Program-made: the position numbers and the translations under genes
Part shown: positions 20,651 to 58,720 of the stretch, piece by piece
Layout of the letters: the number at the start of each line of letters is the position of its first letter
Position numbering within the stretch: position 1 is the first letter of the stretch
The notes under the pieces: model-generated
Database searches by the model: none
What the model saw: only the letters and a program-made list of their open reading frames with translations
What the model was told of the DNA's origin: nothing
From: Psammoneis japonica
Lineage: Eukaryota
DNA length: 64,000 nt
Assembly: GCA_008632985.1 (NCBI GenBank)
Contig: QPGO01000073.1
Location: forward strand, 310,001-374,000
Reading direction: 5' to 3'

Positions 20651-21064
20651 TTCTTTTCCAATTTATGTTCAAGAAGGACATGGCATTTACCAAATGCATG
20701 AATCGAACCAAGCATTGCAATGTCAAATTGCTGGTGTGAGAGATGCCTCCACTTCCGCAAATCTCAGCCGCGACCAAGGCGTGACCACTCAGTCTGCGTC
20801 CGCGATCATCTCAATTTTTTTGGCCTTTGCACCTCCTTGGGAGTGGCCTTTGCACGACTGGCTTCCGCTCGGCTCAACGCTCGCCATGATGGCCGCACGA
20901 CGAACGACGAGAACATTCTCTCACTCGTGTTGCCGTCACTTCTTGTCACTCTCGCCGCCGTCACGATTCTTACAGTAGGCCTCAAAGCGCTATGCGTACG
21001 CTACACGTTCTTATTTTGTCTTCCCCATCTTTCCACAGTCTGCTCACACAATATTTTAAGAAGG

Positions 21065-31000: not shown

Positions 31001-33062
31001 ATGATTTGCCATTGTGAACAGAGTGTCACTCCTCGTTTGAAGGCGTTGCATTTGGATTGCTTGCCATGTCTCAGCATCAAGATTGTGCTCTCAACTGCAT
31101 GGCAGTGCAAGTGGAGTTCAAAGAGGTCCAAGCTTGTGCTCATGAAGGCAGTGGTGCACTCCACTTTTGCTGCAGTGAGCTCTAGCTCCGCCATTTTGTG
31201 CATCAGCTTTGCACCTTTCTTCTCTTGGAATTCAGTCGTTGCCTCTTTGAATTCATTGACAAGCCTTTGTTTCCGTCTGCGTCATTTAAATTAAGTGCAA
31301 ACAACAAAACAGAACGTTTGCAATGCAGGTGATTTTAAATTGCAGGTTTTGCAGGAATGGAGGGTGGGCACTCTCACAGGGAAAATGGTTGGCTGTTTCA
31401 CAGTGAATGGTGTTGCCTCGTGGGACAGTTGCGGGCTCCACAGCAATGAAGTTTGTCTTTCACAGTTGACAAATTGTCACCACGTACACAACCAATGAGG
31501 TTTGAAACCATGAAATTTTTAACTGTGACAGATTAAAAAATTCACTGTGAGAAAGTTGGTCTGATTGCCACATTGCATGCTCTGATGGAAGCCAGCATCA
31601 AGCAGCACAGAATGACCAGCTGCACCCCTTGTGAGAACAAGGGCCATGTGACAAAACCTGGCAGCATGGTTGTTGTCTCCAGTGCCACCCACATGGGCTG
31701 GATTGCACAACCATGAACAGACAAAGATGGCCTCTTGAGCTGGCAACTTCCCTTCTTGGTTTCCCACGTTCTTGGCTGCATTCTGATGCTGCTTTTTTGA
31801 CAGACGAGAGTGGCAGGAACCCCTCCTTGCACCTTTGAACTGCCAGAACAGAAGGAAGGGCAACCCATGGTGCCAGTGCGGATGTGTTGTTTGCACTGCA
31901 AAACAACACTGGACAACGCCAAAAGCAAAAACAAATTGTGAACAAAATTTTGCTGCAGTGACCCAACTGAAAAAAGGAAAAAATTGAAGCAAACAAACTT
32001 GTGCATTGAACAGGACATTGACACAATTGGTGCTGCAGGTTGAAATTGTTGCAGTCGTTGAAAAACAGCTTTGCTGTGGGGAAAAAAGAGGTGGCAATCA
32101 AAAGGCAAAAAAAACTGGCATCACACCCAAAAAGAGCAGGTGAATTTGCACAGGGCATCCATGTGGAGAACACATGGGAAGGATGCCTGCTGGGAGAAAT
32201 TGGGAGAATGTGTCTGTTTCACGCAGAAGAAGACAAATTAAATCCGCCAGAATTGTTGGTTGATTTTGACCATGCTGCAGGAGTCATGCAGGCCCCACTG
32301 GAGTTGTGGAAACAATGCAGGTTTGTCACATTAAATGAGGGTTGCCCTGCATTTGAGGAATGGATGCCCAATGGATCAATGCAAAGCACAAGCAGTGCAG
32401 CAACTGAAGCTTTGCCCATTTTCATGTTTGTGCAGCTCAACATGACAACCCAATGCTCCACAGAAAAGGAGGCACTTCAAAGACATGTGTGTGCTGTGCC
32501 TGTTGCCATCAAATTGCCACAATGCTGGGCTGCCATGCTGCTCTGCAGGAGGTGGCCAACCCAACAGCATGGCTGTTGAGTTGTGCAAAAATGTCATGGC
32601 TCCTTTTGAGAGTGCAACCCAGCACTGTCTGACTGAACAGGCAGGAGTGACCTCTCTCTGCACGCACACACACACCCTCTGGTGGGATGATCAACAAGAA
32701 GAACCTGCTCTGGGCAAAAACAGATTTGGAGATCTTCTTGTGCAAAGAGGCAGTGGTGAGATTAAACAAGAAGTGAACATGGCACCCGAAGCTTCCAAAC
32801 AATCGTCAGCTTGCAAAACAACACAAACATCGAATCGCAGGAACAAGCAGCAAATGTTCTTGAGCTCACCTTGAGGTGACAGAGCGAAAATCAATTTTTC
32901 TGACTGGACACTGGGGCCTGCCTGATTGTGGTGGGAGTCCATGTGGGCTGCAGCAGTGAGAATGAGGTGTCGTGTGTGCACAGCGTTCTGTCGTCGTCGA
33001 CGGGTCGTCATGATGTCGTCATCCGTTCGTTCAAGCGAGTCCCGAATGGACCAAACCATTTT

Positions 33063-38586: not shown

Positions 38587-39887
38587 ATGAGGTTTTCCAT
38601 CAATTGGAACAGCCAAGTGTGCCGTATCACATCGTTCTGGGCTATTGCGTTGGTTGGAACAAAAAATACACGAGTCTGCAAGGCTTTCGTTCCTCCCGCT
38701 TGCCGTCATTCAAGCCTTTTACAACAACAGCAGCAGCAGCTCTCCATGACGACGGCCATCACAACAACCGACTCTGATACTGTTCAAGACATTCGTCACG
38801 TTGATGGAATTCGACACATTGCCAATGATTTTGATATTTTCCTCTTGGACATGTGGGGAGTGATGCACGATGGCTCCAAACCGTACGACGGTGTTTTGGA
38901 TTCGATTCAACGTCTCAAGGACTTGAAAAAGACCATGATGATTCTATCCAACTCTAGTAAACGACAGGACAACTCGGTGCGCATGTTGAAAAAGCTTGGC
39001 TTTAATCCAGACGATTTTGATCAAATCATTACATCAGGAGAGGTGAGATTCAATTCAGTATCTAGATTGGAAAAAGGTCGTCATGTATCTGAAGCAACCA
39101 CAATGCCATTTCTAATTCGTCTTTATATTCCTGCGTCGGGACCTTTCTATTGCTTTAGTTATCCTATCGAATGTTATCACATGACGAAACTTTGGAATGT
39201 GAGCCCTGGTCAGTGCTGGAAGACATGAAACAGCAGTCTAATAAAAAGGTGTTTTGCCTCGGTTCTGGCAGCCAAGATGTCGAGTATTGTGAATCTTGTG
39301 GATGGACCATGGCACCCGTGGAAGACGCCGACTTGGTTGTGGCGCGTGGAACTTTTACCATTGTCGATTCGGAACAAATGATTCACAAGGAACAGGGTGA
39401 AGATGAATACTTTCGAGTCTTGGACGAGAGTTTAAAGGTGGCAGCCAAACGCCAGCTTCCGCTCTTTGTGACAAACCCGGACAAGGTACGACCCGACGAG
39501 GGTCTTCCTCCCATGCCCGGAGCAATCGGTGACGCGTACGAAGCAATATTAGGTGACAAACAGGGACGAGAGCTCGTCAAACGAGTAGGAAAACCATTTC
39601 GAGATGTCTACGATTTGGCTCTAGCTGGTAAAGAGGTGGACATGTCGAGAGTATGCATGATTGGCGATGCGCTCGAGACGGACGTGATGGGCGCATCGAA
39701 AATTGGTTGCACGTCCGTCTGGGTAGTCAACGACGGCATTCATAGTGCGGATATCGCAGAAAAAGCAAATGGTAAACTCGAAGTGGGAACTGCCGCGATT
39801 CTGGAGGAGTTTAATGAAAAGGAGGGGACCTATGCCAAGGATAGAAGACTCATGCCCGATATCTGCGTACCCCACTTTCGGTGGTAG
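38587..39887 (+). CDS. HAD-superfamily subfamily IIA hydrolase, likely plastid-targeted; intron 39043-39158
   Basis: FLLDMWGVMHDG, LSNSS, IITSGE|L, TNPD, VGKP and MIGDALETDV. Presequence with KA-FVP cleavage motif (ASAFAP-like). Confidence 0.92.
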
Positions 39888-40716
39888 ACGTTTGGTACTG
39901 AATCGCATCACTATTATTTGGACGAGGCCGTCAATGACCCTGTTGCTCTCTTTCACTTGTAAGATGTATTGTAACAAGCAGCGCTCCTCCGACAACCTCT
40001 TTTTTCTCGACAAATTCTGTTTGATCTCAACGAAAACGAATCGTAGATCGTGAGCACGCCTTTTTAAATATTAGCATAACTCCACTTCAATAACGGGAGC
40101 TACTTTCCGATACATGCTGTATGGACACCCCCAAAAGGACATTGACTTAGTTGGGAAAACATCCTATTCGTTTCGAGCCTGAGCATCCTGAAAAATTTTA
40201 AGAAGTGCTTCTTGGATCCTGAATTCAAGTAAAACACAGGAGCAAAAGTGTTATCGACATTGTAAGCGGTCGGATCTTTCAAATGGGAAGCTTATAATGC
40301 GTAGCTAAACGAGCTCTATCGAACAAAACAAGTTTCGATCTTCAGCGCAATGACTGGTTTGGATTCTACTGTAGCTGCGCTGCTCATTTCATAAAGTTGC
40401 ATCATTGTAGGCGCCATTTAGCATTGCTAGAGTCCTTAAAACCCCAGTTTGTCGTGGATGAGGTGCTTTCCTTGGAGGAATAGAGTGAGGAATAAGAGTG
40501 GCAGTGAATGAAACACCATTTATAATTGAGCTTAAGTCTAGTGTAGAAGTACCGTGCTCTATTACAGACTGTTCTGCTTTGAAATCTAATGTTTTTCCAT
40601 GAGAAACAAACCAATGCCACTCGAAGAACAACGTGGTATCTTTCTGTAGTGGAAAGAAAAATAAACCATCGGAAGGCAGGAACAAATCAGTAGGACCTTT
40701 TGCGTTTTCTTGGATT

Positions 40717-41472
40717 CTACTCTTGTTGTAAGTAGCCAAACAAGTCGGGTTTCGTTTGAAGCAGAGAAAATAGCAAACTTAGCCTACCCGGGGCTTTCTT
40801 GTGTCCAACTGTTGCAAACGCTTGTGCCCATAAACCAGGATGGGCGTTGTCGGCAGCCAACAACCGTTTCGCATGAGCTTCCATCAAGAACAACCTTACG
40901 GGTTCACAGGCTCTTCCGATTGCACAATTAATCGGCATGCGCCCCTTGTTGTCACTAGCATTCAAATTTGCGCCTTGTTCAATCAGCACACGTGCCACAT
41001 TTACATGCATGCCGATGCATGCGTTGTGCAGCGGGGTTCGTCCATCTCTGTTCACTGCGTTCAAATCAGCACCATTTTGTATGAAGAACTCTACAAGAGA
41101 TTCGTTCCCTACCATGGCAGCTTTATGCAGAGGCGTGGAGCCCCAGTCATCTCTAGAATCCACTTCAGCCCCGTGCGATAACAGCAATTGTGCTTTGGAT
41201 GCGGGTCTGCGCACGGGAAGGGAGCAACAAGCAATTTTATGCAGCGGCGTAAAACCCCACTGTGTCGAAACCTGATTCACATCAGCACCGCATTCCAGAA
41301 TTAGCTCTAACATGGCGTCTTCTCGGACTCTGAGAGCTAAAAATATTGGAGATTCTCGCAAGCCACGTCCTGACAGCGTTGCGTTCACGTCCTGTCCTGC
41401 ATCAAGGATGCTTCGAGCTTGATCCACCTCTCCCCCTTGAATGGCATTAAAAAAAGCATCAGAACTAGCCAT
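40717..41472 (-). CDS. Ankyrin-repeat protein, copy 1
   Basis: MASSDAFF... with repeats GFTPLH, GSTPLHKAA and GRTPLHNAC; open frame. Confidence 0.92.
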   Translation of the reverse strand: MASSDAFFNAIQGGEVDQARSILDAGQDVNATLSGRGLRESPIFLALRVREDAMLELILECGADVNQVSTQWGFTPLHKIACCSLPVRRPASKAQLLLSHGAEVDSRDDWGSTPLHKAAMVGNESLVEFFIQNGADLNAVNRDGRTPLHNACIGMHVNVARVLIEQGANLNASDNKGRMPINCAIGRACEPVRLFLMEAHAKRLLAADNAHPGLWAQAFATVGHKKAPGRLSLLFSLLQTKPDLFGYLQQE

Positions 41473-41959
41473 GATTGTCAGTTGATTCCAATTCTCACAA
41501 TCCGTTCTGTCGCAATGAGAACAGAGCCAGACCACAGCAATGCATGACTGGGTGACTAAAAAGCTCTCATTGCAGGCGGCAGTAGAAGGTGGAAGATGTC
41601 GGAACGGGCGGGGGGACACATGTGCAGGGTATTTCGCGCCTTCCAACGAACGTCTGTCCAACTTGCATCTACAACATGTACAGACTCATGAGCCGACATG
41701 CTGGCGTCAGATTATGAGAGGGGCCGATCGTTTCTTTATCCTTTGCCCCCGGATCCAAACTGGAAAACCAGATGCGCGATCTTTTTGCCGCGACGCGCAC
41801 GGCGGCGACACGGGGAAACAATAAAACGGGATTGTAGTGCCGGTAGAAGCATGTCGTGGGTTTCGCTCTCTAGGGCCCTAGGGCTAGAGTGCTCTAGCTG
41901 GCTGCTGGTAGAGTAGAGAGCAGCTCTGCCAGCTAGCTGCTGCAGTCTACCGGCATGAT

Positions 41960-43700
41960 GCGACATGCCAGAATGCCTTGTGGAGCATGCAGTGGCGCGT
42001 CGCATGTCTGAGACACGCACACCAACTTTCGCGTGCTGTGTGCAGCGTGGCGTCTTGGGCTCACGTGTTTTTCTGGTGCTGGCACACGGCAATTAAATTC
42101 CCCAACAAACAATGCTGCAGTGAGTGATGACAGTGCCTCATGCAACAACACAACAAAAACACAAAAGACAACACCACATTGCTGCCTGGCATGCTGTGGC
42201 TGTTCTTTTTGACGACTCGCCATGTCTTCCCAGTCATCAATGGCCACGTTCTTTCACCAAAAAAGCATTGCTCCAAAGCAATCACAGCCACTGCCACCAT
42301 CTTCTGCAACTCCATTGGATGTGACACCAGCGCTGAAAGTGGAGAAAGAGCTCACCCTGCTCAAGCATGACCAAGAAAACTGAGATGGAGTGCGACAAGT
42401 TGACTCGCATGACAAAGGCGTGCTGATCAATTTCTTCTTTTTCCTTGTGGTGTTGCCATGGCAATGGACTGTGTGCTCATCTGGAGCATGCCTGCCATGC
42501 CAGTTTGAAGTTGTTCGAGGGCCGGGACTCACAGAGCCACTTGAACAAGCTCTTTTGTCATGACAGATTTTCCACTTGATCTTGACAAAAATGATCTCAG
42601 ATCGCAAGCATGCCATTTTAAACATCTTGCTGTTGCTGCTTTCCAATGTTTGTGGCATCCCTGACTCTGGAGAATGATGTCCTCAGGGGAAAGCACATGA
42701 CCAAATCGACCTCACACCTGTTGTTTTCCAAGATTCATGAAATGTGATGGCTGACCCACCAGTCTTGGCTTGTGCTTTGAAGCAAGGAAAAAACAGCTCA
42801 AAAACAAAAAGCATTTTTGTGGGCAAATGTGGTGCACACTGATGACAAGCCCCACTCAATTTCTGAGCATCATTTGCACTGCAGCGGTGGTGTGCTGCTG
42901 GTGCAACACACAGCCAAAACGAGCAGCGGGCATGCAAGTCAGTCAAAGCAATGCAAAGGCATGGTTGCCTTGCTCCTGTTGCATTTTCAAGCATCTTTTT
43001 CCTTGTGTTGTGCTGAGCTGCCCATGATGGTGTGTGTCTGGCAGGTGGCAGCTCTCTGCAAAAAGAAAGAAAGAGGGGAGGCAAGAAGTGAGCTGCAGAA
43101 ATGACCTGTGGCATGGCTGGCTGCAGAAGACAGTGCATTTGCCTGCTGCTGCTGCTCTGTTGTGTGCTGCCAACAGGGGATTTGAATTGCAGCAGAGTCG
43201 GCCATGACAGTTTTGCATTTTTGGTGTGCCATGATTCGTGCAGTGTGCTGTTTGGGCGAGACTTGAGACGTGCAGCAGAGAGAGCCCAACTCTCTGTGGC
43301 AAACAAGAGATTTCATCTTTGTGCAATTTTCTGCTGCAGCTGGCACCAACCAGAACTAGGTGATGTTTTGGTTGATTCTGTGATTGAGTTCTGGCAGAAC
43401 ACCTGCATCTGTCTGGTGTGTTTTGCTGCCCACTGGCAGCCCAGTGACCCACTCAGCACAAAAGAGCCTGCCAGAGCAGCGCTGGCTCCTGACCCCAACT
43501 TTTTCAACTGACACACCTTGAGTGCTGCAACTTTCAAATCTTTGAAAAACTCAAATCACTCACTCAAGACATGTGCCATGTCACCCACCAACAGGTCACC
43601 CGACAGCAGGTCACTTGCCAGTGGGCATCTGACTTTGTGTCTCCTGCTGTGTGCAGAGCAGCAAGCGCCCACCAAAGACCGAGTGGTGGGTTTTTAAAAG
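41960..43700. mobile_element. TA-depleted degenerate repeat block
   Basis: Abrupt loss of TA and most CG; spurious C/H-rich ORFs; no family assigned. Confidence 0.55.
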
Positions 43701-44799
43701 TAAATGCCAACAATGTTAATTTTGAAATCTGTGGGGAAAAAAGTTGTTCACCTGTTTGAACAAAACGTGTGCCACAGTTTCGATCGGCGGAGAGAGATAG
43801 ACGACACACGCAACGGCACAGCACCTGCTGTAGGCTGTAGGGCCCTAAAAAATCGCATCGCTCGAAAATACGAGCGATCTTGTCGTCGTCCGACGCTCTA
43901 CCGAAAAAATAAAGAAGCAGAAGAGACACAAAACTCCATCACCATGATGAATGATGGCGGCGTCTCCATCCATCACGTCGCTGGCTGCAAAGTCTGCTTC
44001 CAATTCTCTGAAACGAGCATGTGTATGTTTGATGACGGAAACATTAAGTGAATGCTCCTGGAAAAACTGCTACAGCCAAGCAAGCGGGTCGATTAGTGGC
44101 GTTCAACCAAGCAACAAAAATACCAGAGACAGTTAGTAGGAAATGTTGCAGGCGATGGAGTTTTGGCTTTGCCAAACAATGCGAAGCAACATACAAAGAC
44201 CGGTGCATCTGCTGCCTGCTGATGGAGGTATTCTCGTTGTAAGTAACACACCGTACTTTTCTTATTTCTGTGATGTTTGATTCAGCTCATTTGCAGCCAG
44301 GCGTTCTTACAATCTCCTCTTTACTCGTGTTCTTCCTCAGAAATCCAACACTCGTGTCAAACTAGCAGCTACTACATGACACACGCAGTGAACACTTGCG
44401 ACAGTGCGTTCGTCTCACTCGGGTTCGTTCGGTTGCCTTTGATCCCACAAACGAAATGTTTGCCACGAGTGGAGCCGTTCGAGTCATTAGAATTTGGGAC
44501 TTTCCGATAGCTAGTAGTGCTGGTGCTTGAGACGCTTTGAAAATTACATTGATTGGACATGCTTGTTCTAAGAACAACAGGGGATGGCTAGATGGTGGCA
44601 TTCATCCGTCGTTTCCCTGTTTGACTGTGTTTCTCAGCCGCAGCAGATCCCTTACTACCGTTTTTGAAGTTATGATTTGGCTTTCCTCCATCCTTTGTTG
44701 AAACCGTTATCTCTTTGCCGGTGGGAGTGCGCTGAGGTCGGGCTCGAGCTCCTAACGACACCGACCGAAATTTCTTTGCTGCTCTTCTTCTCAGGTAAC

Positions 44800-44915
44800 C
44801 GTGATTGCCGGTGCGCTCGAGACGGACGTTCCGGGCGCATCGAAAAGTGGTTGCACGTCAGTCTGTGTAGTCAACGAAGGCATTCATCGTGCAAACATTG
44901 GAGAAAAAGCAAAAA
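44800..44915 (+). pseudogene. Duplicated fragment of the HAD gene 3' exon (39657-39770)
   Basis: GCGCTCGAGACGGACGT..GGGCGCATCGAAAA.TGGTTGCACGTC..GTAGTCAACGA.GGCATTCAT is shared with 39669-39743. Confidence 0.85.
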
Positions 44916-45656
44916 CAAGTTGGGTTTCGCTTGAAGCAGAGAAAATAGCAAACTTAGACTACCCGGGGTTTTCTTGTGTCCTACCGTTGCAAACGCTTGT
45001 GCCCATAAACAAGGATGGGCGTCGTCAACAGCCAACAACCGTCTCGCATGTGCTTCCATCAAGAGAAACCTCGCGGATTCGTGGGCCTCTCCGATTGTAT
45101 AGTGCATCGGAATGCGCCCCGATCTGTCACTAGCGTTCAAATTTGCGCCTCGTTCAATCAGCAAGCGTTCGACATTTTCATTGTTGCCGATGCATGCGTT
45201 GTGCAGCGGGGTCTGTCCCGCTCTGTCCACTGCGTTCAAATCAGCACCATTTCGTATTAAGACCTCGACAACAGCGTCGTTCCCATTCAAGGCAGCTTTG
45301 TGCAGAGGCGTGGAGCCGCTGTTGTCTCTAGCATCCACTTCAGCACCATGCGACAGCAGCAATTGTGCTTTCGATGCGGGGTTACGAGCGGGAATGGAGC
45401 AACAAGCAATTTTGTGCAGCGGCGTAAAACCCGAATATGTCGAAACCTGGTTCACATTAGCACCGTATTCCAGGAGGAGCTCTAACATGTCGTCTTCTCG
45501 GACTCTAAGAGCTAAAAAGATTGGAGTTTTTAGAAACCCACCCAACCCCATTCGCGTTGCGTTCACGTCCTGTCCTGCTTCAAGGTTGCTTCGAACTCGA
45601 TCCACCTCTCCCCGTTGAACGGCATTAAAAAAATGATCATAACTGCTTCTAGCCAT
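44871..45656 (-). CDS. Ankyrin-repeat protein, copy 2 (C-terminus from antisense HAD fragment)
   Basis: Intact 261-aa ORF, closely similar to copy 1. Confidence 0.92.
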   Translation of the reverse strand: MARSSYDHFFNAVQRGEVDRVRSNLEAGQDVNATRMGLGGFLKTPIFLALRVREDDMLELLLEYGANVNQVSTYSGFTPLHKIACCSIPARNPASKAQLLLSHGAEVDARDNSGSTPLHKAALNGNDAVVEVLIRNGADLNAVDRAGQTPLHNACIGNNENVERLLIERGANLNASDRSGRIPMHYTIGEAHESARFLLMEAHARRLLAVDDAHPCLWAQAFATVGHKKTPGSLSLLFSLLQAKPNLFLLFLQCLHDECLR

Positions 45657-47249
45657 GATGGTGTCAGTTGACTCTAATTCTCACAATGCGTTCTGTTGCG
45701 ATGAGAAATGAGAACAGAGCGTGCACCACAACAATGCGATAAAGTGCACCGTGCGCCGCAGCAGAGTGTGGTCGGCGCGGCAATCGCAATCGGCGGCAAC
45801 AGTGAGGTGAAGTTGCATGTCTGCGCACGACTTGTTTTTGCGCGACTTCGGCCGGCTTTGAAGTCGCAAGCATGGTGTTCTGCTGATGTGAGTGCAGGGC
45901 AGTGATGCGGCAGAGGGCCCCACGATGTCGATGGGCCATGAGATGAAACTGGCTCCATGATGGCAGAGAAAAAAACAACCTGCGACTTCACCAGTGCTCT
46001 TGATGCTCCAGTGGTGCCTCCAGATGAACTTGGTGTTGGGGAGATTGTGAAAACTCTCCACCAACTGGGCATGCCACCAGAGAGGGGGGTTTGAGTTGCT
46101 GGTTGCACGGTGTTTGTGTGGGTGAAACCCTCTGTGCGCAACAACACTGACAGAGGGGGAGGTCCCAATTGTCCCAAAAGAGGCTGGTTTTGAGCCAATG
46201 CCAGGAAAGAGGCACCTCCTGTCAGACCCAAAAAAGAGGTCAATCAAGAGCTCTGTTGTCGACAGATCCCTTGGCCCCAGCTGGAGTGCAAAGTGCCCAC
46301 TTGCCAGCGCCAAAGGGCAAGAGTGATCAAAAGTGAGAGGTGATTTTCAACTTGTTCTGTGATCCTGTTGAAGAACCAGACAGGGGCCATTTTCTGCCAG
46401 AATCAGAGGAAGCAAAAAATTTGCAATGGGCGCGAAGCAAATCATCTCCACAGAGCTCGTGTTTTGGCCGAGAAGCATGGCCCAAAGGGGGCAAAAGAAG
46501 CTGAGAAAGATGCAACAGGATGCAAGGTTCTGGCGAAAACTCTCAACAAAGCAAGGCTTTCAACACAGAGGTGGGAAAGAAAGAGGAGGCTCAAGAGGAG
46601 TGCAGCAAAGCAGCAAGTGAGAAAAGTGACAAAAGAGAGGTCTGAGTCAGAGCTTGGCCTCACACCCCCAGCTCAACTCAATGGAGGCAAGCACTCAGCC
46701 CAGAGCTGCAATGTTGAGCCAACTGTGGTTGCAACTGTTGGGCTGTTAGGATGGATCAACAAGTGGAGACAGTTGGTCAAGGGCTTTTGTGATGAGTTCG
46801 GGGGGTGGTGCCCAGAAAGGGGCTGAGCCCTTGTTTTCAAATCTGTCAAGCAGGCTGAACAATGGCCCTTGGCTCCCCTGAGCTGCAAGCATCCAAGAAG
46901 CCCAAACTGGGCACTGCTGTTCAATGGGTGCTTGGGGTTTGAGGCCATTGTGCTGCATGGACTCCCCTGAAAAGACACTGGCTTGACCTGGGAAAATGTC
47001 CCACTCTCACTTTGTGCCTGAGCATGCTGAGAATTAAACCCATTCTTGGCTCTAGAACTCAATTGAAAGTTGGATCAATGGTGCTGTGGATGTTGCATGA
47101 GGTCAGGTTTTTCACATGGGACAAGCTTGGAGTGCATGGCAAAATGAACTCCATCAAGCAAACAACAAAGGGGACTCTCCAGAAACAGCAAACCAAAAAG
47201 TTTCAACATCTTGAGCCAAATTATTTGTTTCATGAAGTTGCAACATGGC

Positions 47250-47850
47250 ACACTCCATTTGGTGTTGCTCAAGGCCTTTTAAAATCAACAGTTTGTTGTG
47301 GAGGAGGTGCTCTGCTCTGTGTTGCAGACCAGCCCCCTTTTAAGAACAAGAGTGGCAGTGAACACAGCACCATTTGTGATGAATTTTAGTCTGGCACACA
47401 AGCAGATCATTTTTTGCATGCTCTGACACAGAAACAAAGCAGTGCCACTCAAAGAACAACATGTTGCTGTCTTTCTGCAGTTGAAAGGAGAACAACAAAC
47501 ATGGGAAGAAAGGAACAAACAATCAATCGGACCTCTTGGGACATCTTGGATTCCACTTTTGTTGTAAGTGGTCAAACAAATTGGGTGCTGTTGAAGCAGA
47601 GAAAACAGCAAACTTGGTTTTTTCAGTTTTTTTTTGTGCCCCACTTTTGCAAATGCTTGTGCCCAAATGCCAGGACAGGTGTTGTCAACAACAACAGCCA
47701 ACAAATGTTTTGTGTTGGCTTTCATCAATGCCAAACTCATGGGTTTGGAGGCCATGTTGATTGCAAAATCAGTTGGAGTGTGCCCCCTGTTGCCACTTGC
47801 ACTCAAATTTGCAGCTCATCTAATCAGCGCATGTGCCACATTTTCATGAC
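47250..47850 (-). pseudogene. Ankyrin gene copy 3: heavily mutated 3' half plus downstream flank
   Basis: GIWAQAFAKVGHKKK..SLLFSLLQQHP. The flank aligns to 40410-40710 and 54450-54740. Confidence 0.85.
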
Positions 47851-49846
47851 CTGTCTCCATTCTTTGCTTCACTCAAATCAGCACAATCTTGCATCAAGAG
47901 CTCTGCAAGAGCATTGTTCCCACACAAGGCAACAAAACAAGATTGTGCCCATGCCCTGTCACACAAACAACACCTCAAGTCATGCTGCTGACATCATTCA
48001 AAGAGATGGCAAAAACACACAAAATGTGCCCACACTCACCTGGGTTGCTTGTCTGGGTCTTGCACACAACAAGCAGGGCACACAATCAATTTTCCAGCTG
48101 CTGCTTGGTCAAAGACTGACTTTTGCTCTGCAAGTGGCAAAAGTTGAGATGTTTTTGTGTGGCACATTGGCCACACATGTTGGCAACAAGATTCGCTCAA
48201 AATGTCATGGCTTCAGGCAAGAGAAGAAAATCAGCAGCAACACTTTGACACAGCAGTGGCAACTTGCCATTTTCATTTGACAAAGCCCACATGTTTTTAC
48301 CATGTGAACAAGGTGCTTGCCACCACACTGGCTTTGAGATCTCTGTTTTCCCAAGCAAGGGATTGAAGACAGCCTGCAGTGTGCGACTGTTGTGTGCACA
48401 TCCACAATTGTGTGTCATTTGCACGTCAATCGCACCACAGTCGTGGATGCGCACAAAGGACAGAACGATCACACAGAGTTGATTGGATGTCAAAAATTGC
48501 AATCGCACCTGGACAATCTGTTGTCACGATTGTGTTCTCTGAAAGGCCTTTTGTCTGCAGAAGCAGTGCAGAAGCTTCAGGCCATTGAGAACTCGTTCGG
48601 AGAAACCAAAAATCACAGAACAAAATTCAATCTCACAATTTCCACTTTTTGCACTTTATTCTGCTTTTGTTTGCACTCGTTCTTTGAGCACAGTGCAAGC
48701 CCAGTCAAAAGCAGTGTGAGAAGAAGCAGCAAAAATGAGCCCAGAAGGGGCCACCAGAGTGGAGGCAAAGAAGGGGCATGTGACACAGAGCACGCAGGGT
48801 GCTTCAAAAAAGAAGTGGGGGAAGAGTCCTTGGGAAGGGCAGAGAAAAAGCAAGGGGCACATGGGTGGTGAGATGATGAGCAATGTTGCAGCCCTGACTT
48901 GTCCCAGGCTTGGGTGCAGTCCAAACTTTGGCACAATTTTCAACAGTTGAAATTTGACAATTTTTAAATGTGTTGTTGTGGGCACATGCAGAAAGGTCTT
49001 GTGCATGCACACACATGCACTCAAAACTGAGGATGGACCCCAAGTTGTTCATTGCTGAGCTGCGCCACAAGATGAGAGCTTGGTCTTCCAACGAGTGATT
49101 TGAAGCTGTGCTCTTGTGTGGAGAAACAATGTAAATCAGTGTTCTCCTGTACAAACCAATTCTTGCATGATGCGTGTGGCACAAACACTCTTTTGTTCAA
49201 ATGCGTGAGAGCACAATTTGCTCTCAAAAGACGACTCTCAACAAAACATTCATTGAGCAACAAGTTTCAGAAGGCACAAGAAGAAGCAAAGCTCAGCCCA
49301 TGCAATGGTGTCAACTTTGGACCCTTTTTTGCTTTTTTGTCAGCACAAACAACTGACACACTTGCACCAGCTGAACCAAACGGCAAAACAGCTTCGAACT
49401 CTGTTTCAGGTGGTCGAAAAACGATGACAAAGAATCTAAAATCGAGGAGCTCCTGGCCTTGCTGTCATCCGCGACAAACTCGTCAGTTTTCGATCATGCA
49501 TTGAAAAAAGACACAAGCATCCGCAAGAATCCACCATGGTGCTCCATCCACGTTGCTGTGGTTGCAAAGTCTGCTTCCAACTCTGTGAAACATGCACATG
49601 AATGTTTGATGATGGAACGGTGTAATTGTTCCCTGGTGCAATGACGATGATCTTTGGGAAGCTTCAGTCAATCGTCGGATGCATGTTCACTGTGTGCTTC
49701 TGACAAAGCTGCTCCAGCCAAGCAAGTGGGTCAATCAGTTGCATTCAACCAAAAACAGCAAGCATCAAAAATGCCAATGACAGGAGATGGTGTTTTGACT
49801 TGATGTCTTTCTGTCATTGAACGAACCATCGGAAGGAAGAAACAAA

Positions 49847-50634
49847 TCAATCGGACCTCTTGCGCTTCCTGGGGTTCTGATCTTCTTGCTGCAAGGAATC
49901 AAACAAATCAGGTTTCTGTTGAAACAGAGAAAACAGCAGACTCAGCCTTCTTGGGGCTTTCTTGTGTCCCGCTGTTGCAAACGCTTGTGCCCACACACCG
50001 GGATGGGCGTTGTCAACAGCCAACAAATGTTTTGCATGAGCTTCCATCAAGAGCAATCTTGCGGGTTCGTGGGCCATTCCCATTGCAAAATTAATTGGAG
50101 TGCGCCCCGATCTGTCACTGGCACATTCAAATTTGTGCCTCGTTCAATCAGCAAGTGTTTGACATTTTCATTGTTGCCGATGCATGCTTTGTGCAACGGG
50201 GTCTGTCCTGCTCTGTCCACTGCATTCAAGTCAGCACCATTTTGCATCAAGAGCCCTACAACAGCATTGTTCCCTACTCCGGCAGCTTTGTGCAGAGGTG
50301 TGGAGCACCTGTCATCTCTAGCATCCACTTCGGCACCATGCGACAGCAGCAATTGTGCTTTGGATGCGGATCTAAGTCTGGCAGGGAAGCCAGCAATTTC
50401 CTGCAGTGGCATGCCCCCGAAAAGTGGTGTCAAAACCTGGTTCACATTGGCACCGCATTCCAGGAGGAGCTCTAACATGGCGTCATCTCGGACTCCAAGA
50501 GCTGCTGTGATTGGAGTTTCTGGCATGCCACCCAGCGGTGCATTCATGTCATGTCCTGCTTGAAGGATGCTTCAAACTCAATCCACCTCTTCCCATTGAA
50601 TGGCATGAAAAAACTCATGAGATCTGGTGGACAT
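49847..50634 (-). pseudogene. Ankyrin gene copy 4, moderately hypermutated
   Basis: Full-length homology to copy 2. CGA->TGA stops at 50580-50578 and 50574-50572, and a frameshift at ~50122. Confidence 0.9.
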
Positions 50635-51499
50635 GATTGTCTGTCGAGTGAATTTCTCACACTTGTTTGGCTGCGATGATGAGCTGGGACAGTGAGTCCA
50701 AAGTTGATGGCACAACGGAATGAAGTGTGTCTTGCCTGACTGAGCTGAGGTGATCAAGTCTGTCGTTCCAACAGGCAGACTAAACTGGATGAGGTCAATG
50801 CCATGCACAAAATGATGCTCTAGCCAGATGTTGTGAGAGGAGTGGCTCTGATCTGGAAAGTGATCGACAGCGTGTTGTGGAGAGCAAGAAGCAATTTGGG
50901 CCATGTCGATTGCTGTTGGAGTTTTTGTTTGCACTGCGTGGCACTTCTGCGATCAAAATGAAAGTTCAGTCGTGGTTTCTTGAATGATGCAAGTCCATTC
51001 AATCGTGAGAGGTTCTGTGCATGTGGACACAGGGAACGTGGGATGATTCCTGTCATGTGCCCCCCCCCCCCCCTTGAATCGAATGAGTGAAGGTGAAGAG
51101 ACATTCAGAAAAGCATTTGAGCCAGGAGACACCAAAGGGCACAATCAACCATGCCCAAGTCTTCTTGGCACCTTGAATTTTGTGAGAATGTCTGCAAGTG
51201 TTGTCATTCCTTGGGGCCCAAAAAGTCCCTCTCAAACACCCCCCCACATGTCTTTGTTTGAACTTGTCCCATCTGCTGGCCACTCATGCTCCTCCAACAA
51301 GCAGCAGCCTTGTTGTCCAGCAAGAGGATGAAAAGAGCAGCAGCAAGACATTGAGGTTCAATTGAGTGGGTCCACTTCTTGGCTCCAAGGCGGGTGAAAT
51401 CGCAGGCCAACATGTGTGGTGCAAAGAGGTCAGCAACAAGTGCTCACCCCCACAGACTTGGGCTTTGCACAAGACCTGACAGCAGGGGTCAGAACAATC

Positions 51500-53150
51500 A
51501 AGTTGAAGTCAAGCATTGCCCACCAAAGAATGCCACAAATCCAATGGTTGATCTGGTGGTGTTGGGATGGTCTCCTGTGCCAGCTCTTGCATGGTGTGAA
51601 TGCTGCAAAATCAGAACAGCTGATGTTGTGGGCCTTGCACTGCAGAGCAGGAGGCTCTTAGATGGATCTCTGACTGGAGCTTGATTGAAAAATCCTGACA
51701 CTTTCAAAGACAGACAGAAAGACAGACAAAAGCACCAAAGTCTTTCACACCAGAAGGTTCAGCTCAATTCCTGGCAAGCTTGCAGGTGGTTGACAGGCGC
51801 CGTCTGTGAGGGCACCCCAGGGGTGACACCTTTCTTCAATCTCCTTGCTCAGTTTTTTCCCAAAAATGCAGCGTGTGCACACACAAGAAATTGAATTTTT
51901 GTGTGCTTGCATGCAGTTTTTGTTTTTTGAGTGTCCAAAGATGGGTTTTTGGAAATGTGATCCAGCGCTGCACTTGATTGATGGGTTTTGTTTTTGCCTG
52001 GGGCCAAGGTGGTGACTCCACAAAAGAAACAACAAGGGGGCAAGTGAGTCACAAAAATGACCCAGGCTGGCTGCAGAAGATGGCATGTCCCACGCTCTGC
52101 CTTGTGCTGGGGCACCAGATCTGAGCTCATTGTTGTCACTTTGGAGGCAGTGTTGCCAGCATCAGAGGCACAAACATCAGAAAGGCTTGTGTCAACAAAG
52201 TTGTCATCTGCTGGGTTAGAATGAGAGCATTGTTGTCATTGACCAAGTCAGGGTTGTCCTGAAGCTTGCACTCAAGAAACGTGTTTGTGAGTGCAAGGGC
52301 TTTTAGCATCTGTTGAGTGGCCACCAAAATCTGTCAACATGTTGGTTGTGGCACTGGTCAATGTTGGCAGCACAGCCTGCTGGCGTGCTGCCAAACTGTT
52401 GTCTTGCCAACAGCAAACAAGAGGAAACAGTGTGTTCTTCATGCTCATTTTCTGTTGAGCCTGCACACTCTGCTCCCATGGTGCAAGGCTGTGCATTGGC
52501 TCCCCATGGTCTTTGCAAGTTTTGACACAGCTCCAAAGTTGAGTCTAATGTGGTGTGTTTGTTGCAGCCCAGGTGTTGTTCTGCCATGGTGACATGGCAC
52601 GTGGAAGGCACAGTCACCATGAAGATGAGCATGACAACGGGTGGCTGTGTGCACTCAAAAGGCAGGTTGTCACATGGGCTGCAGCATGGGCTTTGTCCTC
52701 AACCATGCAGGTGCAGTGCATGTTCAATCTCCAGCATGAGTGTGCTCACCCTGTGTGCACAAGCTCAAACTCATTTTGGGCACAAGGACCTTTGGCACAC
52801 AAAATTCTCTGTCAGCCTTGACCATGCCAAATTTAAAGCTGTGTCCCTGGCACACACACACATTCCAGTTGGCCATGGAGACCACAAATCCAAAGTAGAG
52901 GGTGATGCCAATGGCCATGAGGGAGTGGCCCTGGTTCACAAACATGATGTTCATTGCCAAGACCACTTTGCAGTGTCATTCAAAGATGGGAGTGAGCACT
53001 TTGGCAGCTTTGCCAATGACCAGGCATCTGGCTGATGCACGTTGTTGCCCTTTTAAGTGCTCCAACATTGTGGGAGCCAACCAAAGTTGTGACTGGCATT
53101 GGTGACATCTCAGCTTTTTGCCAGGCAATTGACCATCTGGTTCTGGCCCA
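51500..53150 (-). mobile_element. Degenerate Ty1/Copia (diatom CoDi-like) integrase region
   Basis: NCLAKS*DVTNA..VGALK (NCPVT..D..NA..GALKGKT), VLAMNIMFVN (L..DIMFVN), FKFGMVKADREF, GEH..EIE, LPF and WGANAQ (FGAYVQ). Boundaries approximate. Confidence 0.7.
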
Positions 53151-54741
53151 CCAGTGTTTCCCAGCAAGTGTGAATTTTGGTCAACCAAAATGGGCATTTT
53201 GGACAATCCCAAACACTTTGGTGGGCCAATTTGCCAACCAAATCAAATTGGTCACAACCATTTTGACATTTGCAAAATTTTGGCCAAACTCATTTCCTGC
53301 ATGTTTCTGCACACTGCCAATGCTGACACAGCTTCTGCAAAAATTGGTGCAGTGTGCCAACATGCTCATTTTCCAATGGAAAGATTTCCTCCAAAGTGCA
53401 CCAAATTCTGCCAACCAAAATGAAGTTCTCGGAAACAAAGTCATTTTTGTCAGGTGAGCTTCAGTTTTGTCAACAATTTCGCACTGACCAAAATGAATGT
53501 TTTGGTTGGCCAAAGCACACATTTGGGGTGCATCACAGCTGGGCACTTGTGTGCTTGGTCAGAAGGTGCCATGGTGTGATGTTGCTTGGCTTGCTCTCAG
53601 TCAGTTGCTTGGTCTGCAAGCACCATGCTGTGCTTGGTCATGGCAATGGGCACGGCACACATGCTGCCTCTTGTGGATGAGAACCTTGCAAGCAATCCAC
53701 GCACACAGTGAAAACTTTGAAAGCATCATCACTTTGGTTGTCAAGTGCACTTGACTCAACAGTGCAGCTGGACTGTGGCCAAACAAGATGAGGGTGGCAC
53801 ACCTGAAGTGGGAAGTGCCACGATTCTGGAGAAATTTGAGAAAAAAGGGAACTCACTCTGCCAACAAGGATGGTGCATGCTCATGCCCAACATCAGCGTG
53901 CCTCATTTTTAGTGGCAGATGTTTGGCACTGCATCACATCACTGTTTGGACGAGTGCTGTGAGGGCTCAGACCAACATGCTGGATGGGCTGCCCAATGAT
54001 TTTTTCGAGTGTGGCTGCTGCGACATTGGCAGCAAGCACTCCATTTGTTTCAAGCCTGAGAAACTGAGAATTTGAAGCTCTTCTCGGATCTTGAATTCGC
54101 AAGAAATGCAAAAGTGGAAAAAATGCATGTTTGAGAAAACCAAAGATTTCCAGTTCTGGATTGCTCGCAGCACAGGCTTGTTGAAGGAAATGAAGCAACA
54201 AGGCATTAGGAAAAAAAAAGGTTCAAAACGGACAGTGGATGGGCTGTCAAAATTGTGGGTGGTCGGATGTTTCAAATGTGGGAAGCTTAGAATGCGCAGC
54301 CAAAAACGAACTCTGCCGAACAAACAAGAAAGTAGACTCGTGTTCTTAACGATTTCAGACCTCTCTGCTAGAAGCAGCACAACAGCCAAAAATGATTCGT
54401 TTCGATTCTGCTCTTGTTGCGCTGCTCTTTTCATGAAGTTGCAAAATGGCAGGTTCCATTTGGCATTGCGCGAGTCCTTTTGAAATCCACGGCTTGTCGT
54501 GGTTGAGGTGCTCTGCTTCGTGCTGCATAGTCCGATTCCCTTTTAGGAACAAGAGTGACAGTGAATGTAGTGCAATTTATAATAGAATTTGAGTCTGGCA
54601 TAGATTGCAACACTCTGATACAGACTGTTCTGCTTTGGAATCCAATGTTTGTCGTGGGAAACAAACTAATGCTGCTCGAAGAACAACGTGGTGTCTTTCT
54701 GTCGTTGAAGGAACAATGAAACATCGGAAGAAAGGAACATG

Positions 54742-55531
54742 TCAGTCGAATCTTTGGCGTTTCATTGGATTCTGATCTTGTTGTAAGTACCCAAACAAGT
54801 CGGGTTTCGTTTGAAGCAGAGAAAATAGCACACTTAGACCACCCGGGGTTTTCTTGTGTCCGACAGTGGACAACGCTTGCGCCCATAAACCCGGATGGGC
54901 GTTGTCAGTGGCCAACAACTGTTTCGCATGAGCTTCCATCAAGAGAAATCTTACTGATTCGCGGGCCTTTCCGATTGCATAATAAATCGGAATGCGTCCC
55001 CTGTTGTCACTTGCATTCAAATTTGCACCGCTTTCAACCAGCACGCGTGCCACATCTTCATGTATGCCAATGCATGCGTTGTGTAGCGGGGTCCGTCCCA
55101 CTCTGTCGACTGCGTTCAGATCAGCGCCATTTTGTATCAAACTTCGGCAACAGCGTCGGTACCTCCGCGCATGGCAGCTGCATTCAGAGGCGTGGAGCCC
55201 CACTCATCTCTAAAATCCACTCCAGCCCCATGCGACAGCAGCAATTGTGCTTTGGAGGCGGGTCTATGCCCGGGAGGGGAGCAAGCAATTCTGTGCAGCG
55301 GCGCAACACTGTAACATGTCGAAATCTGGTTCACAACAGCCCCGTTTTCAGGAGGAGCTCTAACATTGCGTCTTCTCCGACTTCGAGAGCTAAAAAGATT
55401 GGAATTTCTAGAAACCCACCCAACCCTATTCGCGTTGCGTTCACGTCCTGTCCTGCTTCAAGGATGCTTCGAACTCGATCCACCTCTCCCAATCGAACAC
55501 CCACAAAAAAATCATCAGAACTGCTAGCCAT
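54742..55531 (-). CDS. Ankyrin-repeat protein, copy 5 (two frameshifts; error or young pseudogene)
   Basis: ORFs 55331-55531, 55137-55334 and 54742-55203 join into one homologue of copies 1 and 2. Confidence 0.82.
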
Positions 55532-55853
55532 GATGGTGTCAGTTGATTCTGTTTCTCACAATCCGTTCTGTTGTGATGATGAGGACAGAGCAAACCGTTG
55601 TGCCGTCGCAGCAATAATAGCGAAATAATAGTTGCGCTATGAACGTGGAACGCGGGGGTGGGTTTCAGCGTGGATTTCGCGCCGCCGTCGACCGAACGTC
55701 TATCTCACCAGCTTCTACGGACTCGTGTTTGGATTTGCTGGCGTCAGATTATGGGAGGGGCCGATGGATTCCCCCCCCCCTTCCTCACCAAACGCGAGGT
55801 TTTGCGCCGTGACGAGCGACGACAACACATAACAATACCGCATCTCACTTACC

Positions 55854-56779
55854 ATGTCATCCAGTCCATACGAGAACAAGATTGTCCTCATTACGGGTGC
55901 TTCTGCCGGCATGGGCAAAGCCACGGCGCTGTACCTTGCTGCCAAGGGAGTAAAGGCCTTGACACTTTTTGCCCGTCGGCCCGAGAAATTACAATCGTTG
56001 AAAACGGAGCTCAATGAATCCTTTCCCGCTGTTGAAACGTTGGTGGTGGCGGGTGATGCAGCCAAGGCACAAGACAACCAACGAGCAGTCGAAGAAACCG
56101 TAAAGGCTTTTGGTGGAATTACGTCGGCCTTTGTGAATGCGGTAGGTATCGTTTGTACAGGACAAATCATGTGTAGCCTTATGGCATGAGAAGTCCCTGT
56201 ATCTAACGAGTAAACAACACGTGTTGCTTCTACACCATTCACGCAGGGAGCCTTTCGTGGAGGTGCTCCAATTCACGACTCGAGGACCAAGCCATTGAAG
56301 ACTCCATCAATGTCAACATAAAGGGCGTGATTTACGCCTTTCGATACCTCATTCCAGCCATCAAAACTACCGTCGGTGATGAAGGACCAACAGGGTCGAT
56401 TGTTGTCAATAGCAGTTGTATGGCCGACACTGTTATTGCACCCAAGAGTATTGGCTCGGGTATTTATTCAGCCTCCAAGGCCTTTATCAATAGTTTGATT
56501 CAAACTGCCGCGATTGAAAACGCCCCTCTCATCCGTGTCACCGGTGTCATGCCCGGAGTGATTCACACGGAACTAATGCCCCTGGATGGCGATTTATATG
56601 ACAAGATTGCACAAGGTGTGCAGCCGTTGTATGGAAGAGCCGGAAAGCCCGAGGAAGTGGCCAGTCTAGTGGGTTACTTGCTTAGCGACGAAGCCTCCTT
56701 GGTATCAGGCACGTCCATCAAAGTGGATGGACTTTGGTCCTTGGCGGGAGGTTCTTTTCCAGACATGAGTAAAGTATAG
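55854..56779 (+). CDS. Short-chain dehydrogenase/reductase; intron 56142-56246, one frameshift near 56280
   Basis: ITGASAGMG, NA|G, VNSS, YSASK, PGVIHT and GKPEEVA..YLLSDEAS..G..IKVDG. Confidence 0.93.
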
Positions 56780-56929
56780 CAGCATTATACTACTTCTAAT
56801 CAAAATGTGTCCCGATCGCTGATTCAAACTCTCGAACTAATGTTTGGTCTGAGAACTGATTTGTTGTAAAAATGTGATATGAAAAGCCGTTCCCGATCCC
56901 AGCTCGGGAGACACGTGACAGAGCAAACG

Positions 56930-58450
56930 TGATGTGATGTCGACGGAATCCTTTCAGAGTGCTGAGTGCTGGTGCTGATCTTTGATGACACCAGGTACGA
57001 TGCTGTTCAACGTGCAGCAAGAGACTACAGCTGGCATTGATTGCTTGATTCCAATGACACTCGAGGGAAATCATCCTTTGGGGTGGCACTGGAAAGAACG
57101 GGACAGAATGCACGCATCATGTCTTCAAAGGTTGGTTAGACTGCAACAGTGGACCTGTCTCCCTGCAAATGGCAGTTTGCTTTGTTTCCCAGAGACATTG
57201 CTCAGCAGAAACCTGGGCCATTTCTTGCAGCATGACAATCAGCACACTGGATCACCCAAAGGTTTTTCTCTTTCTGGCCTTTGCCAGTGGCCAAATGCAT
57301 CAGGCTTTGTCACTCTACATTGCATCATCTGCTGGAATCTTCACCAAAAGACAGAAGTTGAGCAGGCATCCCACACTTTGTGAGAAGATGCCAGCTCTGC
57401 AGCCGTTGCAGGAGAACTTTGCAGACAAACCTGTGAACTCAGAGAGAGCTTTGTTTTTGTCTTGGCCGGCTTTGCACCAACATCTTGAAAATGCTGCTTG
57501 GCATCAGCTGCAGCAGCACAAGTCTCATCACAGTTGATGTTGTCATTGACCCACAAGAGCATGTCACAAATCTCATCAACCATGGCACAATCTCTGGCTG
57601 GCTGGTGCTGTCATTGGCACCTGGAAATGCCTTGGTCAACTGTGAGTCAGGGGGGAAGGTCATTTGCTCATGGCACTGGGTTGCATGTTGGCACATGCAA
57701 GCTTGTTTCACAAACACTGTCTGTCTGTTGAAAGCACAGTTGGCAGTGGTGTGTCGCTGGGACTTGGTGGCAACAGCAGCCACCAGATCGCCAGAGCAGA
57801 GGACTTTTCAACCACTTCAAACAGCAGCTCTTTTGACAGCAAACTTCAGTGAACCAGTGCCCTTGCAAGCTCAGCAGCACTGTGGGTGGGCACGTCAACA
57901 CATGCCATTCTGGCAACTCAACAAAGCTGCAGTGCGAGCATTGTGGCTGACGACAGCAGTTGCCCAGAGGAGGCTTGTGATGGAAGACAGATGCACATCA
58001 TTGTTTGCTGTGCTGCTCTGACATCACTGTGCAACATCCATGTTGTAGCAGCCAGTGCTTGGCTGGTCATTCTTGCACAGTGTGGTGCCCTGCAGAGCTG
58101 TGTCCTCACTCCAATTGGAGCATGATCGCTGAAAATCCAGCCAAAACTTGTCATGTCACAAAACATCATGTGAGATGCAAACAAGCAATCATGATGTGGT
58201 CAATGTTTGCCAAATGAGAAACCCATGGATCAAGCAAGATGGAGCTCCATGCCAGGCATCATGTCACTCTCCTTGATGCACAGAACGAAAAGGAGCCGCT
58301 GCCGGAGGTGAGAGACACAAGAACGACATGCATGCTGTGGAAATGCACAGCAAACCTGCCAAACAATCTCTTTAGAATCAAATCAGCACCCTTCCTCTTT
58401 TCTTTCGTTGCTGAATCTCTGTTCTTGGGGCATGGACAGTGGAGAGGCAT
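56930..58450. mobile_element. TA-depleted degenerate repeat block
   Basis: Same dinucleotide signature, lying between two normal genes; family not recognisable. Confidence 0.55.
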
Positions 58451-58720
58451 GCATTGCTGTTGCGTTAGTTGCACAGACAAATTTTTGTCCATCCTTCGAT
58501 CCCTTACTTGTCGTCACGCAGACGCAGTCGTCATCCTGTCGTCATCGCAGTCAATTTTCGAATTTGGATTTTTGACACCGCAAAAGCTCATCAAGATGCT
58601 TGGACTGTAAGCCAAGCCGCTGCAAAGGCAAAGGGTATTCCAACTCTATCTTGCTAGCTCAGAACTGTTCCTAGCCAGCTCCTTGAGTGCATTAACCCTG
58701 CACAGTGCACTGAAATCACA

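Follow-up and report, generated by a model that had tools for sequence, protein, structure and literature searches.

Position-restricted loss of TpA and CpG from copies of an ankyrin-repeat gene array in a probably diatom-like genome

The 64,000-nt stretch of contig QPGO01000073.1 analyzed here (the window) carries an ankyrin-repeat gene in five copies. All are encoded on the minus strand, as established by direct-repeat search, self-BLAST and MAFFT alignment. Three of these copies (c1, c2 and c5) sit in normally composed DNA, whereas the other two (c3 and c4) lie within an 8.4-kb block, block B (45741-54206), that is depleted in both TpA and CpG (TA and CG in the counts below). An initial annotation of the stretch had set intact copies outside the affected block against eroded copies inside it, and this opposition is borne out by dinucleotide counts and by branch tests. 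We consider it likely that two context-specific transition processes, acting in domains defined by position, have eroded c3 and c4.

The five copies differ markedly in their state of preservation. Copy c1 (40717-41472) has normal composition and an open frame of 251 aa, encoding an intact ankyrin-repeat protein (Pfam Ank_2, E=2e-53), and c2 (44871-45656) is likewise intact and normally composed, with 261 aa and an ankyrin profile match of E=1e-33. The 3' end of c2 is chimeric, as 44802-44913 is 87% identical to 39658-39769 within the HAD-hydrolase gene, and a cDNA-like contig from this end continues across an intron at 44239-44340 (GT..AG) to 43927. Copy c5 (54742-55531) lies outside block B and its open reading frame (ORF) is normal in composition. 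In the window it contains two 1-nt gaps (55140/55141 and 55345/55346), but contigs from a DNA sequencing run, X1, carry one extra letter exactly at 55140 and at 55345 at full depth, and with N placed at both sites the frame is open for 263 codons. Assembly error or strain difference probably accounts for the two gaps, and c5 is probably an intact gene; its use as a control pseudogene outside the block was dropped because the X1 contigs contradict both frameshifts. Copies c5 and c1 end in different stop codons (TA>TG at 54773 of the plus strand).

In contrast to these three copies, c4 (49798-50683) is an ankyrin pseudogene, and its 166-aa remnant ORF still matches Ank (E=7e-20). Where c2 (and also c5) reads TTCGAACTCGA, c4 reads TTCAAACTCAA, and the CGA codons of c2 and c5 are TGA stops in c4 at 50578-50580 and 50572-50574, corresponding to codons 19 and 21, exactly as had been proposed for this pair of CG sites. 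Copy c3 (46949-47921) is truncated to the 3' flank and approximately the last 370 nt of the ORF and is nearly free of TA and CG. In a BLAST self-comparison of the window recoded as purines and pyrimidines, which hides transitions, 40113-41007 and 46949-47848 align with a score of 575 against a maximum of 107 in the reversed-sequence control. The copies had been described as near-identical, but by BLAST the figure is 75-84%, with c1, c2 and c5 80-84% identical among themselves and c4 75-80% identical to them; c3 reaches 68-73%.

Counted over the ORF columns of the alignment, TA and CG number 22 and 38 in c1, 23 and 51 in c2, and 18 and 46 in c5, compared with 6 and 20 in c4 and 1 and 2 in c3, the last counted over 678 nt in columns 103-872, of which only the 3' half aligns reliably. 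The earlier statement that c3 is the more heavily affected of the two eroded copies therefore stands. To place changes on branches, we scored those private to one copy among c1, c2, c4 and c5 over 721 ungapped ORF columns. The c4 branch carries 65 changes, comprising 7 TA>CA/TG, 17 CG>TG/CA, one reverse change in each class, 15 other transitions and 24 transversions. The c1 branch has 28 changes (1 TA>CA/TG, 3 CG>TG/CA, 10 other transitions and 11 transversions), the c2 branch 26 (0, 1, 7 and 12, respectively) and the c5 branch 47 (2, 2, 16 and 21). Since the other transitions and transversions on c4 are about as numerous as those on c5, the excess on c4 is confined to these two contexts. Measured against the total number of changes, the two classes together are enriched on c4 relative to c1, c2 and c5 combined (Fisher, p=1.7e-5), as is the CG class alone (p=3.8e-4). 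Per shared site, c4 has lost 7 of 11 TA compared with 3 of 33 on the other three branches (p=7.6e-4), and 17 of 34 CG compared with 6 of 102 (p=5e-8), the context-specific excess that the initial annotation had anticipated. On c3, 14 of the 75 private changes in 381 columns fall in the CG class and 3 in the TA class, with few shared TA sites left to score.

The direction of change is equally apparent in pairwise comparison. Between c2 and c4, 14 TA sites of c2 are CA or TG in c4, 3 are kept and none is reversed, while 28 CG sites are converted, 16 are kept and 2 are reversed; control pairs outside the blocks are roughly symmetric, with 3 versus 8 and 5 versus 9 for c1 and c2. All eight c2-to-c4 examples originally quoted fall at aligned positions. 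The two examples quoted for c3 are also real, but their partner is c1 with its 3' flank (40644/47475 and 40517/47371) and not c2. The claim that TA is ancestral at several of the quoted sites holds for four of seven, where TA is present in both c1 and c2 and at three of them also in c5; at the other three TA occurs in c2 only and the change is unpolarised. At the ACTTAG site, TG in c3 and CA in c4 can each be reached from TA by a single, different step, and TA must therefore be ancestral there. Different c3 and c4 derivatives of CG are likewise found at alignment columns 630 and 820.

The same conversions extend beyond the ORF. The recoded self-comparison recovers homologies that ordinary BLAST misses, among them the 3' flank of c1 (40113-40716) paired with the c3 flank (46949-47500), in which 22 TA are converted to CA or TG and none is kept, and the 3' end of the HAD-hydrolase gene (39767-39915) paired with a plus-strand copy in block B (53792-53946), in which none of the TA is kept and 7 are converted, while 2 CG are kept and 5 converted. 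A further pair joins 43964-44145 with 49542-49789. Independently of the ankyrin array, a normal sequence at 15009-15943 pairs with 19704-20722 (plus strand), inside the block at 18000-21000, with recoded BLAST scores of 198, 135, 135 and 117; over these four segments 1 TA is kept and 25 are converted, and 3 CG are kept and 26 converted. The normal member of this pair overlaps an open 280-aa frame (14301-15143) that lacks a Pfam match and is linked only weakly, through the Atlas, to hypothetical proteins of diatoms. When eight non-ORF segments are pooled, omitting a ninth that overlaps, the TA sites of the normal copy are converted to CA or TG in 60 cases, kept in 2 and otherwise changed in 20, with 3 reverse changes, and the corresponding values for CG are 51, 9, 13 and 1. 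Both strands are equally affected (TA>CA 32 versus TA>TG 28; CG>TG 23 versus CG>CA 28).

These eroded sequences are embedded in a wider compositional pattern. TpA has an observed/expected ratio (o/e) of at most 0.2 in 24 of the 64 1-kb windows, all 24 of which have CpG o/e of at most 0.6 and mean CpA/TpG o/e of at least 1.58, whereas 1-kb windows with TpA o/e of at least 0.43 have CpG o/e of 0.81-1.30. The depleted windows form six delimited blocks (1-5000, 18000-21000, 26000-33000, 42000-43600, 45800-54200 and 57000-58400) with edges of 0.1-0.6 kb, and the rest of the window is normal. Summed over 26,405 nt, the blocks hold 132 TA (o/e 0.08) and 526 CG (0.33), with CA at 1.71 and TG at 1.78, compared with 1389 TA (0.57), 1896 CG (1.01), CA at 1.18 and TG at 1.17 in the remaining 34,295 nt, edges left out. 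Base composition hardly differs between the two. Block B, which holds c3 and c4, lies between TA sites at 45740 on its left and 54207 on its right; it contains 32 TA (o/e about 0.05) and 117 CG in 8401 nt, with CA and TG nearly equal (920 versus 931), and its 1-kb windows have TpA o/e of 0.02-0.12, CpG o/e of 0.04-0.52 and CpA/TpG up to about 1.8. Block A (41949-43694), between c1 and c2, is delimited in the same manner, by the loss of TA after 41948 and its return at 43695.

With TAA and TAG nearly absent, the blocks are rich in long reading frames that are spurious. The six frames contain 106 overlapping stretches of at least 100 aa from stop to stop, of which 105 have no Pfam family above the cut-off and the single exception is the c4 remnant. 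Viral or transposon Pfam families were found in none of the 106, and four sub-threshold matches (DUF6283, zf-MYND, ROS_MUCR and similar) were ignored as weak. Other local features of the blocks include short internal tandem duplications of 79-95% identity (3049-3352/3577-3880, 30499-30818/30685-31004 and 19233-19515/19510-19794). In the first block, C strongly outweighs G on the plus strand at 2001-3000 and 4001-5000 (GC skew -0.46 and -0.53), and CA outnumbers TG there (559 versus 452), an asymmetry unlike block B. Within block B, the summed X1 contig depth at 48376-49009 (core approximately 48400-48700) reaches 22,479 compared with about 65 elsewhere, with many loose ends, which indicates a very high-copy repeat; 48401-48600 has 9 CG and no TA and resembles a younger insertion in which TA has been lost and CG not yet.

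Whether a sequence is affected is determined by where it lies. A unit at 39767-41527 is duplicated at 53792-55591, and the part of the second copy up to about 54200 is fully converted, while the zone at 54391-54790, in the 3' flank of c5, shows partial TA loss and no CG loss. Relative to the c1 flank, 14 sites are TA in c1 and CA or TG in c5, compared with 1 in the reverse direction, whereas TA changes between the c5 and c1 ORFs are balanced (6 versus 6) and CG changes over the whole unit are symmetric (7 versus 11). The block edge thus runs, with a gradient, through a duplicated unit, and position rather than homology decides what is mutated. Furthermore, c1, c2 and c5 belong to the same duplication as c3 and c4 yet are untouched, most of the 8.4 kb of block B is unrepeated within the window, and the blocks share almost no sequence with one another there apart from small internal tandem repeats. 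Position, with edges that span 0.1-0.6 kb, thus governs targeting and repetition does not, in agreement with the proposal of the initial annotation that a domain rather than homology alone is targeted. The affected domains may correspond to chromatin domains.

The two depletions share their domains but not their exact limits. At each of the four edges examined, CpG reaches 50-600 nt deeper into the block than TA does: on the left edges TA stops at 41948 and 45740, and CG at about 42087 and 45983, respectively, whereas on the right edges CG resumes at about 43601 and at 53821-54006 and TA resumes at 43695 and 54207. The flanks of the surviving sites also differ. Surviving CG within blocks is enriched in G+C-rich flanks (GCGC 2.1-fold, CCGC/GCGG 1.9-fold), and surviving TA in TTAA (4.4-fold) and CTAA/TTAG (2.8-fold), with ATAT at none of the 132 sites and ATAC/GTAT at 0.16. 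The TA bias points to a wider recognition context in which R-TA-Y is most mutable. Taken together, the footprints and flank preferences suggest that the TpA and CpG arms are two separate processes acting on one target domain. Immediately upstream of the c2 transcript, 45741-45983 has no TA and about 20 CpG in 240 nt, resembling an unmethylated CpG-island-type promoter within the TA footprint.

In the explanation we favor, the array spans both gene islands and depleted domains of this eukaryotic, probably diatom-like genome. Within the domains, TpA has been converted in place and on both strands to CpA or TpG, and CpG to TpG or CpA, the two arms converging on CpA/TpG. Copy c4 is then the younger, half-eroded copy stopped by two CGA>TGA changes and c3 the older, truncated and almost fully converted one, while c1, c2 and c5, in transcribed islands, have kept TA and CG, silent sites and flanks included. 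The TpA arm is probably akin to the TpA hypermutation of the rhizarian alga Bigelowiella natans, most likely enzymatic adenine deamination in a TpA context in silent DNA, and the CpG arm is most likely ordinary 5-methylcytosine (5mC) deamination in the same, presumably methylated, domains. Mutation of c4 could be either the cause or the consequence of its silencing.

Several observations weigh against this explanation or narrow it. The TA excess on c4 is marginal when expressed as a share of changes (p=0.049), because few TA sites are shared. The claim that the mutator inactivates host duplicates needs qualifying. The two c4 stops arose by CGA>TGA, through the CpG arm rather than the TA arm, and a 2-nt insertion (50124-50125) shifts the frame of c4 as well, so the mutator is not necessarily what inactivated it. 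That the c5 ORF escaped and the flank 3' of it was partly affected could reflect selection or transcription-linked protection instead of a fixed edge. None of 158 hits to c1 in the protein collection serves as an outgroup, its best relatives being generic ankyrin proteins of at most 39% identity, and the root of the five copies is therefore not fixed. Site patterns conflict as well, with 18 sites (14 of them transversions) grouping c2 with c4 against c1 with c5, and 10 and 6 sites supporting the other two splits, a mixed signal that probably reflects sequence exchange (gene conversion) among the copies. Finally, the C>T rate is not raised in the hypermutable regions of B. natans as described in the available part of the preprint on that alga, leaving a link between the two arms unsupported there (bioRxiv 10.64898/2026.01.13.699255).

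Among the alternatives, the TpA changes could be a by-product of base modification in silent DNA, in which a modified T or N6-methyladenine mispairs in parallel to 5mC without any deaminase or defence. Modified thymines can favour T>C changes, and the two targets here are both self-complementary pyrimidine-purine steps, affected equally on both strands, co-localised and dependent on their flanks. We nevertheless judge this explanation unlikely, as the TA and CG footprints are unequal at the edges and the mutation bursts reported in only 11 of 15 B. natans lines, as far as the available part of the preprint goes, fit a regulated activity better than steady decay. It is less probable still that one deaminase with dual specificity for A and C in DNA makes both arms. 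Both depletions coincide in 24 of 24 strongly depleted 1-kb windows, and ADAT2-type enzymes are reported to edit A and C in DNA (cited in the available part of bioRxiv 10.64898/2026.01.13.699255); however, CpG is still present where TA has gone at every edge examined, surviving TA and CG have opposite flank preferences, c4 has lost 64% of its TA but 50% of its CG, 48401-48600 retains 9 CG beside 0 TA, and the hypermutable regions of B. natans show no C>T excess in what is available of the preprint.

Other explanations dispense with mutation of host DNA in place. The blocks might be foreign or mobile inserts that were already poor in TA and CG, with c3 and c4 as captured fragments, and it is true that they hold no recognisable host genes, that 105 of 106 frames lack a Pfam match above the cut-off and that TpA-poor genes are linked to viral and transposon domains in the B. 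natans data, according to the available part of the preprint (bioRxiv 10.64898/2026.01.13.699255). We regard this as very improbable: viral or transposon domains occur in none of the 106 frames, host-type sequences have been converted site by site with normal homologues a few kb away, a block edge falls with a gradient within a duplicated unit, and c4 is half and c3 fully converted, as expected of a process acting over time. Mutation of the ankyrin repeats triggered by duplication, as in repeat-induced point mutation (RIP), would suit the membership of the affected genes in a tandem family, but its direction is contradictory, as RIP makes TpA from CpA (PMC2621366, in its available part) while TpA is destroyed here (block o/e 0.08); moreover, c1, c2 and c5 are equally duplicated and untouched and most of block B is unrepeated in the window, and we give this possibility almost no credence. 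Equally hard to credit is the proposal that c3 and c4 are retro-copies of RNA hyper-edited by an ADAR-type A>I activity. Although A>G change at UA steps resembles RNA editing preferences, the strand symmetry (TA>CA 32 versus TA>TG 28; CA 920 versus TG 931 in block B) contradicts it, the changes span flanks and 8.4 kb of contiguous DNA, and C>T at CpG would be unexplained.

The surroundings of the array are those of an ordinary nuclear genome. The window encodes PEP carboxylase, a lipase, pseudouridine synthase, RF-1 and cyclophilin, together with an HAD hydrolase, an SDR, a bestrophin and an MFS/SPX transporter, with introns of about 100 nt bounded by GT..AG as judged from cDNA-like contigs. 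The best named relatives of a PEP carboxylase exon and of pseudouridine synthase are diatoms (62-70% and 50-60% identity, respectively), none near 100%, which implies that proteins of this organism are absent from the collection searched. An Atlas hit was weak (0.84), with Bacillariophyta as its commonest group, and an Rfam search of 39000-58500 gave no match. The sequencing contigs come from one sample and two runs, X1 and a second run, X2, recorded as 'DNA?'. The GT..AG joints of the latter, at 44238/44341 and 56140/56246, indicate that it is cDNA-like. The contigs listed for it map to c1, c2, c5 and the SDR gene, and include an 800-nt contig on c1 with zero differences (40764-41563), contigs on c2 at 44985-45755 and, spliced over 44239-44340, at 43927-44863, and one on c5 at 54801-55191. 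Block stretches with little or no X2 cover cannot be counted as evidence of silence. The X1 contigs match the blocks nearly letter for letter, but possibly derive from the source sample of the window itself and so are not independent support. Within 43800-52500, four T>C differences between X1 and the window are listed, two of them at TpA (45675 and 47222), which are too few to interpret, and for this reason and because of the possible identity of the samples we dropped these differences as a sign of ongoing mutation.

The importance of the array lies in its being an internally controlled natural experiment, with copies of the same sequence a few kb from each other, some within a domain and some beyond it. 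So far a single report, a 2026 preprint, describes hypermutation of chromosomal DNA directed at TpA, and only for viral inserts in one alga. The array shows the direction and specificity of the process and its action on host-type genes, and shows that the TpA process travels with CpG decay yet is separable from it. What is new here is the targeting of host-type duplicates, a co-localised CpG arm with a narrower footprint and, probably, a different, diatom-like organism; if that organism is not B. natans, the process is no single-lineage curiosity. There are practical consequences as well, as the 106 spurious long frames are a trap for gene prediction and block homologies missed by ordinary BLAST are recovered by purine/pyrimidine recoding. 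More tentatively, and with some doubt, a homology-independent defence or silencing-linked mutagenesis outside fungi, converting TpA and CpG to CpA/TpG in non-genic domains, might be common to a diatom-like stramenopile and the rhizarian B. natans. If so, such mutagenesis would be old or recurrent in the stramenopile-alveolate-rhizarian (SAR) groups, and host gene duplicates landing outside active gene islands would be destroyed.

For the TpA arm, the closest counterpart comes from B. natans, where hypermutation confined to TpA affects integrated DNA of giant viruses and virophages (Mettrop et al., bioRxiv 10.64898/2026.01.13.699255; all statements on it refer to the available part of the preprint). 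In mutation-accumulation lines of this alga, 230 of 231 new mutations in two hypermutable regions, both viral inserts, were A>G or T>C and all 230 were at TpA, with bursts in only 11 of 15 lines; its 95-Mb genome contains 124 clusters of TpA-poor, CpA+TpG-rich 1-kb windows, and an ADAT2-like candidate enzyme has been proposed (bioRxiv 10.64898/2026.01.13.699255). In both systems TpA is changed to TpG or CpA on both strands in restricted regions, TpA loss and CpA/TpG gain cluster in 1-kb windows, and some of the affected B. natans coding sequences are also of likely host origin. In contrast, the window has a CpG>TpG/CpA arm, whereas the main text of the preprint, as available, contains no mention of CpG, and the targets identified in it are tandem host-type gene duplicates with their flanks, namely c3, c4 and the HAD-gene fragment, rather than viral inserts. 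The depletion is also deeper, with TpA o/e of 0.02-0.1 over 24 of 64 kb here compared with 0.45 in the B. natans region derived from nucleocytoplasmic large DNA viruses (NCLDV), and the organism, probably a diatom or one of their relatives, is unlikely to be B. natans. Our literature searches for a TpA signature surfaced only this preprint and papers on RIP, and those for methylation in B. natans found none.

The CpG arm resembles the 5mC decay of vertebrate and plant repeats in its CpG>TpG/CpA changes, in a CpG o/e well below 1 and in the survival of CpG in G+C-rich flanks. Diatom transposons are cytosine-methylated. However, 5mC decay would account for only one of the two arms. APOBEC3, acting on retroviral cDNA, and ADAR, acting on double-stranded RNA, similarly direct deamination with neighbour-base preferences against unwanted nucleic acid, but the substrate of these enzymes is single-stranded cDNA or RNA and they mark one strand, whereas chromosomal DNA is changed here on both strands in fixed domains. 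The nearest functional analogue is RIP of ascomycete fungi, with which the process shares irreversible context-specific transitions, the destruction of duplicated genes and a dinucleotide signature in blocks. The process is nonetheless unlike RIP in its opposite signature and, as the initial annotation had recognized, in not affecting all duplicates: RIP converts CpA to TpA (PMC2621366, in its available part) while TpA is converted to CpA here, and RIP is triggered by duplication and mutates both copies, whereas in this array three copies out of five have escaped and the changes also fall in unique DNA.

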